From the NCBI GenBank assembly GCA_019338205.1, contig GCA_019338205.1_4761.1: a DNA stretch of 64,000 bases. The stretch is one strand, 5' to 3'. Under the pieces are notes generated by a model, which was not told the origin of the DNA, did not search any database, and was given only the letters and a program-made list of their open reading frames with translations. Shown here piece by piece: positions 19,537 to 63,350 of the stretch. The DNA comes from a phage. Position numbers and translations under genes: made by a program. How positions within the stretch are numbered: position 1 is the stretch's first letter; the number at the start of each line of letters is the position of its first letter.

Positions 19537-21860
<2,324 letters not shown>

Positions 21861-49952: not shown

Positions 49953-49981
49953 TTGACACCAGATCCGGCCTATAGCATAAT
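49953..49981 (+). promoter_or_regulatory. early promoter cassette type I
   Basis: A-rich upstream tract, TTGACA-17-CATAAT, conserved leader, ATG 50028. Confidence 0.6.
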
Positions 49982-59913: not shown

Positions 59914-59921
59914 TATAAATA
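59914..59921 (+). promoter_or_regulatory. T4-type late promoter (TATAAATA) inside inverted repeat, upstream of RI-like gene
   Basis: Exact TATAAATA on plus strand 33 nt before ATG 59954, flanked by CCCCAGAT / ATCTGGGG. Confidence 0.45.
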
Positions 59922-62152: not shown

Positions 62153-62181
62153 TTGACAGCGATCCGGTGTCATTGCATAAT
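62153..62181 (+). promoter_or_regulatory. early promoter cassette type I
   Basis: TTGACA-17-CATAAT plus conserved leader; ATG 62223. Confidence 0.6.
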
Positions 62182-62222
62182 ACACCCATCGAAACGAGAT
62201 ACACTTTCTAGGAGAATCAAAA

Positions 62223-62444
62223 ATGGCAACTGTTAAAATTATCAAATCTTCCGCTGGTTTCGGTTTCATGCGTGGAGCTAAGTACCCGATGATTATTGAA
62301 AACGTTGCCATCGAAGATGGTATGGCTAAAGTGACCAGCCGTCAATTGTTCGAAGCTGGTGTTAAAACTGCTGAATCATGGGCGCTTCGTTACCCAAACA
62401 AAACTTGGTCTTTCTTCCTGAATGGAGAAGCAGAGGTCATCTAA
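62223..62444 (+). CDS. early hypothetical protein (73 aa)
   Basis: Behind type I cassette; followed by terminator. Confidence 0.5.
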   Translation: MATVKIIKSSAGFGFMRGAKYPMIIENVAIEDGMAKVTSRQLFEAGVKTAESWALRYPNKTWSFFLNGEAEVI

Positions 62445-62462
62445 GTAATATTATTAATCAAT

Positions 62463-62485
62463 GCCCCTTAAATGGGGCTTTTCTT
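62463..62485 (+). terminator. intrinsic terminator
   Basis: gcccc-ttaaat-ggggc plus TTTTCTT. Confidence 0.55.
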
Positions 62486-62498
62486 GTGAGGAAACTTT

Positions 62499-63278
62499 AT
62501 GGCAATATCTTCTGGATGGGTAGGATCATCTGCTGTGTCCGAGACTGGTCAACGGTGGATGAGCGCCGCAATGCAAGCTGTTCGCTTAGGTCGTCCGGCG
62601 TATATGTCGGCAATGGTCGGACGCTCTAAAGAGATTCATTATAGCATTGGCGCTAGTAATAGTTACAATAAAGATACGCTTATTAACTGGATGAAAGCAC
62701 AGTGATCTACTCCGGTAGTAATTACTATCACTGGTAATATTGTTTCCCAATCTACTGGCGTTCCTTGTCTTGACTTCCCTAGCTCGTTAACAAATGAATA
62801 TGTAACATTGATCATTAACTCCGGTGTTCATGTTTGGGGGCGTGGTGGTAATGGTGGCAATAACTCCGCTGGTGGTGCTGGTGGTAATGCAATAAATAAC
62901 GGAATTGGAACTAGATTACGTATTAACAACAATGGTGTTATCGCAGGCGGCGGTGGCGGTGGAGGTGGTGGGTATTATTCTCCTACGAAACCAATGAAAT
63001 TAACTTTTGGTGGTGGCGGCGGTCGTCCGTTTGGTGCTGCTGGTGGATCTGCCAACATGCAATCAGGCGCAACTGCTGGTACTATTTCCGCGCCAGGTAA
63101 AGGGTCTGTCAACGGTGTATATAATGGCGGTAACGGTGGTGATGCTGGCGGTGCTGGTGGTAAATGTAATATCCGTGGACAGGGATCGGAATATAATGGC
63201 GGTGCGGCTGGTAAGGCTGTTACTGGCAATGCCCCTCGCTGGGATAAAGTAGGCACGATCTACGGTGCTCGCGTGTAA
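62499..63278 (+). pseudogene. 38: T2-type gp38 tail-fibre adhesin homolog interrupted by one in-frame TGA (codon 69)
   Basis: MAISSGWVGSSAVSETGQRWMS... then TGA at 62703-62705, then same frame continues ...LTNEYVTLIINSGVHVWGRGGNGG...AGGGGGGGGGYYSP...RWDKVGTIYGARV; both halves match recalled T2 gp38. Confidence 0.6.
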
Positions 63279-63285
63279 TTTTATG

Positions 63286-63311
63286 GGCTATCCTTCGGGA
63301 TAGCCTTTTTG
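63286..63311 (+). terminator. intrinsic terminator (PeSL stem-loop)
   Basis: ggctatcc-ttcg-ggatagcc plus TTTTTGTTTTTT. Confidence 0.65.
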
Positions 63312-63322
63312 TTTTTTGGGTG

Positions 63323-63350
63323 TTGACAATGAAAATCATAGTGCTATAAT
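63323..63350 (+). promoter_or_regulatory. early promoter cassette type I with extended -10 (TGcTATAAT)
   Basis: TTGACA-16-TATAAT preceded by TGc; leader ...CCAACTAAGGAGAATCAAAG-ATG. Confidence 0.6.

Follow-up and report, generated by a model that had tools for sequence, protein, structure and literature searches.

The DNA analysed here (the window) is a 64-kb stretch of a phage genome of about 166 kb, and genes 34-37 of this genome lie outside it. At positions 62499-63278 on the + strand, the sequence, the ORF list and the translation agree on a single frame of 259 codons closed by a TAA at 63276-63278. The translation is interrupted only once among these codons, by a TGA at 62703-62705, which occupies codon 69. 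The original prediction that two adjacent ORFs are one frame broken only by this TGA describes the locus correctly, and for annotation both ORFs belong together as one gene 38 (g38) with an internal stop. The features of the locus and its surroundings are the following:

59914..59921, + strand: nearest T4-type late promoter motif on this strand, TATAAATA, just upstream of rI (motif search)
62153..62181, + strand: early sigma70-type promoter, TTGACA N17 CATAAT, for the 73-aa ORF 62223-62444 (motif; a promoter is annotated there in GEC-3S)
62463..62478, + strand: terminator-like stem-loop GCCCC-TTAAAT-GGGGC followed by a T-run, between the 73-aa ORF and g38 (motif; a terminator is annotated there in GEC-3S)
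62488..62494, + strand: Shine-Dalgarno sequence GAGGAAA, with the GAGG core ending 7 nt before the ATG at 62499 (read from the sequence)
62499..63278, + strand: frame of g38, coding for the long-tail-fibre tip adhesin, with one interruption (translation, Pfam, 6F45_D homology, DNA identity)
62499..62705, + strand: N-terminal product, 68 aa and then TGA, with the gp37-attachment domain only (Pfam Gp38_N over residues 1-40, model of the relative P0005)
62703..62705, + strand: opal TGA at codon 69, GGA (Gly) in relatives (DNA alignment, six of six loci); context AAAGCACAG-TGA-TCTACT, the next base being T (UGA-U)
62706..63278, + strand: remainder past the stop, beta-helix and glycine-rich PGII receptor-binding domain, 190 intact codons and TAA (Pfam GP38, dN/dS); presumably untranslated or rarely read through
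62808..63278, + strand: mechanical ORF with a TTG start, 156 aa, without the attachment domain (ORF list)
63285..63350, + strand: stem-loop terminator at 63285-63306, then a perfect sigma70 promoter at 63323-63350, TTGACA-N16-TATAAT (motif)

The ORF at 62808-63278 begins with the first TTG after the TGA, and no Shine-Dalgarno sequence precedes it. Its start is probably not genuine, as both a Shine-Dalgarno sequence and the attachment domain are missing. Reinitiation at this TTG was rejected as a rescue of the gene for the same reasons, and the product would moreover lack residues 70-103. The exact 156-aa sequence was absent from the protein collection (~15 billion proteins).

Both sides of the stop were recognised as gp38 by Pfam. 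The 68-aa head matched Gp38_N (PF21721) over residues 1-40 with an E-value of 1e-19 (70.7 bits; cut-off, 25), the 190 residues past the stop matched GP38 (PF05268) with an E-value of 2e-60, and the repaired protein of 259 aa matched both (E 1e-72). The repaired protein could also be aligned over residues 1-257 to the crystal structure of Salmonella phage S16 gp38 (6F45_D, E 6e-50), in an alignment which takes in all of its glycine-rich motifs. A database search of the flanking sequence had been set beforehand as the check on the proposed identity, and it returned gp38 adhesins for both sides of the stop. Judged from these sequence matches, a resemblance by chance can be excluded and the locus is a T2/S16-type gp38 tail-fibre adhesin gene, a known gene in a known place.

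Regarding domain architecture, the N-terminal gp37-attachment domain is present according to Pfam and the model of a 96% identical relative, and the C-terminal beta-helix with the PGII receptor-recognition domain and its hypervariable loops is present according to Pfam and 6F45_D. The proposed division of the protein into an attachment domain of the T2 type and a glycine-rich receptor region was thus recovered by both Pfam and 6F45_D. The family feature that the locus lacks is an uninterrupted ORF of ~250-270 codons joining both domains, as a TGA stands at codon 69. The N-terminal helical attachment domain, beta-helix, glycine-rich motifs and hypervariable loops are shared with S16 gp38 (PDB 6F45) and with T2/T6-type gp38, whose frames are uninterrupted, unlike the frame in the window. 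In the S16 adhesin, a bundle of helices at the N-terminus fits onto the gp37 trimer; the beta-helix bears a polyglycine sandwich whose distal loops bind the receptor (PMC6851490).

Megablast searches with the locus and with 24 kb of the window found only RB49-like coliphages (Krischvirus). Identity to ELT4, vB_EcoM_011D4, PHB13, GEC-3S, Phi1, JSE and RB49 was 96-97% over long stretches, and the g38 locus itself shows 92-95% DNA identity to the annotated g38 of the closest Krischvirus phages. The window holds a block of baseplate, head, tail and neck genes and then runs through the early region via tk and rI to g38. According to the annotation tables of ELT4, GEC-3S, Phi1 and ELT3, these phages share the order tk, rI, five or six small ORFs, g38 and small early ORFs, with terminators and sigma70 promoters annotated at matching places around g38. 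The g38 of the RB49-like phages listed above is the same gene of 259 codons in the same slot between the rI region and the small early ORFs, with the same flanking terminator/promoter (PeSL) elements; it has GGA at codon 69, whereas the window has TGA.

In T2, T6 and S16 gene 38 follows g37, whereas here it lies ~100 kb from g37, as in all Krischvirus. This arrangement was already published for RB49, in which an unrelated small ORF occupies the position next to g37 (PMC3157838), so the "displaced" g38 is a genus-wide layout and not peculiar to this genome. The original prediction of a displaced gene in the early region behind a terminator is accordingly right about the distance from gene 37 and about the terminator motif, which is real; the displacement, however, is normal for Krischvirus. 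The same prediction had called for a search for a second gp38. By tblastn the window contains exactly one gp38 match, and each of the 106 phage records with a match has one g38 place (106/106). From these records and the single match in the window we conclude that 62499-63278 is the only g38 and not a spare copy; the conserved synteny and single copy are those of the Krischvirus g38 cassette.

The annotation of g38 is uneven among the relatives. The CDS of ELT4 (L001:3372-4079) and ELT3 (L008:13303-14007) start at the internal Met25, and in PTE-Eco09 (L006:1488-2251) an intact g38 is split into three "hypothetical proteins", one of them antisense. We considered vB_EcoM_PTE-Eco09 as a second broken g38 and rejected it, because the gene is intact by tblastn and merely mis-annotated.

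The signals around g38 resemble those described for the group. The terminator and promoter at 63285-63350 form a PeSL-type element that closes the g38 cassette, and PeSLs have been described in the hyperplastic regions of RB49/phi1 (PMC4122927). A 23-nt sequence, GCATAATACACCCATCGAAACGA, occurs three times on the + strand of the window, at 49975, 50937 and 62175; in every case the repeat covers the -10 box of an early promoter together with a conserved transcript leader, which is consistent with the repeated PeSL-type cassettes of RB49-like phages. No recognisable T4-type late promoter TATAAATA was found on the + strand within ~2.5 kb upstream of g38; late transcripts might reach the gene by read-through from the motif at 59914-59921. 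The gene encodes a virion protein and yet sits behind a terminator, and the route of its late expression in Krischvirus is not evident from the sequence. A g38 without a late promoter is a property of the whole genus and not part of the anomaly.

To place the TGA among related alleles, codon 69 was compared at the level of DNA and protein. All six relatives inspected by sequence carry GGA there (ELT4, GEC-3S and Phi1 by DNA alignment; ECD7, PTE-Eco09 and ELT3 by tblastn), and a one-base change of G to T at 62703 converts GGA to TGA. The original prediction of a glycine codon lost by a single G-to-T change is therefore upheld. From 5.8 billion protein clusters, 147 relatives of gp38 were retrieved, and in the alignment of the best 119 of the 147 together with the repaired protein this column is Gly in 118 of the 120 sequences and Ala in the other two, and no sequence ends there.

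The exact 68-aa product was found among ~15 billion proteins only as EHU9813598.1 and on the Logan contig of SRR15243799. The former is a "hypothetical protein KZ558_000545 [Escherichia coli]" from a 165,715-bp contig of an E. coli isolate assembly, a length that matches a complete Krischvirus genome. The collection lacked the repaired 259-aa protein, so a wild-type contig of that sample is not recorded. The TGA allele was also looked for elsewhere. In viral contigs, a degenerate pattern matched ECD7 alone, which has GGA; metagenomes contained no match, and among complete E. coli genomes the one match was an unrelated, partial gp38. A literature search on the run, protein and locus-tag identifiers returned no relevant paper. 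By these searches the TGA allele is private to one sample.

The same 90% cluster as the 68-aa product contains P0004, a 99-aa N-terminal gp38 protein ending in ...PSSLTN from a Logan contig of 96,940 bp, which may be another truncated g38 allele from a different sample. Several further gp38 proteins of Krischvirus are deposited under E. coli, E. fergusonii or even Bacillus cereus, so the data of bacterial isolates repeatedly contain virulent T4-like phages as passengers or contaminants.

The TGA is reproduced in a second assembly. The Logan contig SRR15243799_916 (1,063 bp) is 100% identical to positions 62181-63243 of the window, TGA included. The NCBI and Logan assemblies come from separate pipelines but probably share one read set, and hence do not count as two independent sightings of the phage. 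Given the same TGA in both, an assembler artefact is unlikely, and the agreement of two assemblers means that TGA is what most reads say. The 31-mers at the ends of the Logan contig are not repeated within the 64 kb.

All ORFs of at least 60 aa were taken from the parts of ELT3 that are syntenic to the window and searched against it by tblastn; g38 was the only real gene with an internal stop across the 64 kb. The other flagged ORFs were dismissed as antisense shadows, one gene cut by the window edge, and an insert in the ELT3 terminase that the window lacks. This large terminase of ELT3 (PQ368571.1, L007:20533-23349) has 938 aa with an insert of ~327 aa at residues 169-495, which matches Pfam LAGLIDADG_3 and looks intein-like; TerL of the window (19543-21363, - strand) has 607 aa without the insert.

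Within g38, codons 1-68 show no DNA difference from ELT4, and only three codons differ among codons 1-131, the stop included. The remaining 32 of the 35 codons that differ from ELT4 all fall within codons 132-191 (62892-63071), a segment whose origin differs from both ELT4 and GEC-3S. It is a recombinant patch over glycine-rich motifs and hypervariable loops, typical of adhesin shuffling. The same patch is seen in P0010 (a Logan contig), where 25 aa between Gly runs are deleted, and part of it in P0008, a protein with an N-terminus of the Tequatrovirus type. Downstream of the stop, comparison with ELT4 gives a dN/dS of 0.19 and comparison with GEC-3S one of 0.12; the intact genes of ELT4 and GEC-3S give 0.11 when compared with each other. 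The locus thus carries one lesion and a low dN/dS, whereas a decaying pseudogene is expected to show multiple lesions and a dN/dS near 1. By these comparisons, the part past the stop evolved as a working protein until essentially now.

The explanation we favour, and consider probable, is a very recent, lineage-private G-to-T opal mutation in the sole canonical g38 of a Krischvirus, which knocks down the adhesin and is an accident of this phage population. The GGA of the relatives, the identity of codons 1-68, the low dN/dS and the lack of any other broken ORF together point to a single recent change.

The consequence of the stop was considered on an AlphaFold2 model of P0005, which is 96% identical to the repaired protein with the same length and numbering (mean pLDDT 93.3). 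In the model, helices occupy residues 8-16, 21-27 and 36-39; a hairpin (46-56), a further helix (58-67), a loop (68-72) and the first strand of the beta-helix (73-77) follow, which places the stop just past helix 58-67 and before strand 73-77. As a monomeric adhesin, gp38 would cap the gp37 trimer at each long-tail-fibre tip and bind the host receptor. Nearly all ribosomes are expected to stop after residue 68, and the 68-aa stub would keep the gp37-attachment helices and lack both the beta-helix and the polyglycine receptor-binding domain. UGA followed by U was reportedly found by Poole, Brown and Tate in 1995 to be a comparatively efficient terminator in E. coli. UGA is the leakiest stop in this bacterium, and K-12 reporters put its near-cognate decoding by Trp-tRNA in competition with RF2 at ~2% when grown at 37 °C and up to 4% at 25 °C (PMC10570021). 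Readthrough in the UGA-U context and in non-K-12 hosts would probably lie below 2-4%. A full-length adhesin could arise only by this basal decoding, at most at a few percent, as a G69W protein in which Trp would stand at a nearly invariant Gly. The fibres would then be mostly receptor-blind, the stub may also compete for gp37 tips, and strongly impaired adsorption is expected.

A precedent comes from T6. Its g38am allele (Trojet et al. 2011) is likewise a nonsense point mutation in the adhesin gene, and on non-suppressing hosts the only viable progeny of such amber mutants were revertants (PMC3157838); by analogy with these mutants, g38 of the window may be regarded as essential. The T6 allele is, however, an engineered amber, whereas the window carries an opal allele in a public E. 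coli isolate assembly.

The original prediction had also offered a decaying adhesin copy and UGA readthrough that sets adhesin dose, and neither is supported by our data. A redundant copy decaying in the early region, with a functional g38 beside g37, would fit a gene that is separated from the tail-fibre genes and preceded by a terminator. However, each Krischvirus record has its sole g38 in this one place, the slot after g37 in RB49 is taken by the unrelated ORF (PMC3157838), and a single lesion is followed by signatures of purifying selection (dN/dS 0.12-0.19). Such a copy is effectively excluded, and we attach hardly any credence to it. Programmed recoding, by which a conserved UGA readthrough, a selenocysteine insertion or a frameshift would set the adhesin dose, is equally hard to believe. 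The continuation of the frame past the stop is perfect and UGA is the stop usually used for readthrough, but the stop is absent from every relative examined, with GGA at six of six loci and no stop in the column of 120 sequences. A stimulatory RNA structure and a tRNA gene are also both missing: the RNA of 62685-62790 folds no better than its shuffles (z -0.40) and shows no readthrough- or SECIS-like structure, ARAGORN detected no tRNA gene in the 64-kb window, and RB49 encodes no tRNA (PMC1524935). The UGA-U context, a strong terminator in E. coli, likewise speaks against recoding. The sequence also leaves little room for a frameshift, as the +1 and -1 frames both reach stops within 12 codons. 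A natural UGA readthrough gene of a phage is that of the A1 read-through coat protein of Qbeta. There, too, a long coding extension which the virion would need lies in frame behind a UGA. In Qbeta, however, this UGA is conserved and most of the function rests with the short product, whereas in the window the stop is private and the short product lacks the function. Because the stop is not conserved but private to one sample, an evolved device of programmed readthrough is effectively refuted.

The main alternative to a real mutation is a wrong consensus base. A base-call or consensus error, or a minority variant taken as the consensus, would mean that the phage truly carries GGA and an intact 259-aa adhesin; we regard this as unlikely, although it deserves to be taken seriously. 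A fixed TGA in a replicating population is surprising, since the sole adhesin is cut and strong counter-selection is expected: an adhesin-null virulent phage should not persist, and revertants should outcompete it and sweep. This surprise keeps the error hypothesis alive. The rest of g38 looks perfectly functional, G-to-T is a classic class of oxidative-damage artefact, and the phage is by-catch of a bacterial isolate run, so coverage may be low; the Logan contig over the gene is only 1,063 bp long. Against an error, the two assembly pipelines give the same base, the repaired protein was not found in the collection, and the ORFs of at least 60 aa show no other nonsense or frameshift lesion across the 64 kb, which argues against an error-prone consensus. 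The sequencing error named in the original prediction is thus made less likely by the second assembly, and it is still a live rival. A real TGA could also reflect selected loss of the adhesin, in which low adsorption permits coexistence with the host culture (carrier state/pseudolysogeny) and the leaky UGA gives a trickle of infective particles. The deposition of the genome in an E. coli isolate assembly (EHU9813598.1) implies travel with a growing culture, UGA leakage in E. coli is ~2-4% (PMC10570021) and the stub retains the attachment domain. However, the phage and the isolate could just as well have been sequenced together because the culture or library was contaminated, and no second example was found: the other E. 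coli-filed Krischvirus gp38 proteins we found are full length or cut by contig ends. We find selected loss improbable. Its more specific form, in which the opal allele is a naturally selected adhesin dimmer that reduces gp38 to the level of basal UGA readthrough, perhaps also capping fibres with the receptor-blind stub, and the virulent Krischvirus with its lowered adsorption persists as a carrier-state passenger in the E. coli isolate, seems quite improbable to us and is a speculative refinement of the recent-mutation explanation.

Under the favoured explanation of a recent opal mutation, the change would be an accident in a phage co-sequenced with an E. coli isolate and not an evolved regulatory device. 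It reveals no new mechanism, as the displaced g38 and the modular adhesin are textbook for this group. For host-range prediction the repaired 259-aa sequence should be used, with a warning of a possible adsorption defect. The adhesin dimmer, if true, would explain why the assembly of a bacterial isolate contains a complete T4-like genome. Should the TGA be confirmed in the reads, this phage would represent a natural opal mutant of its sole adhesin. It could then serve as a gauge of the minimum number of functional fibre tips that a T-even-like phage requires, and would test whether reduced adsorption helps virulent phages to ride along in bacterial cultures.
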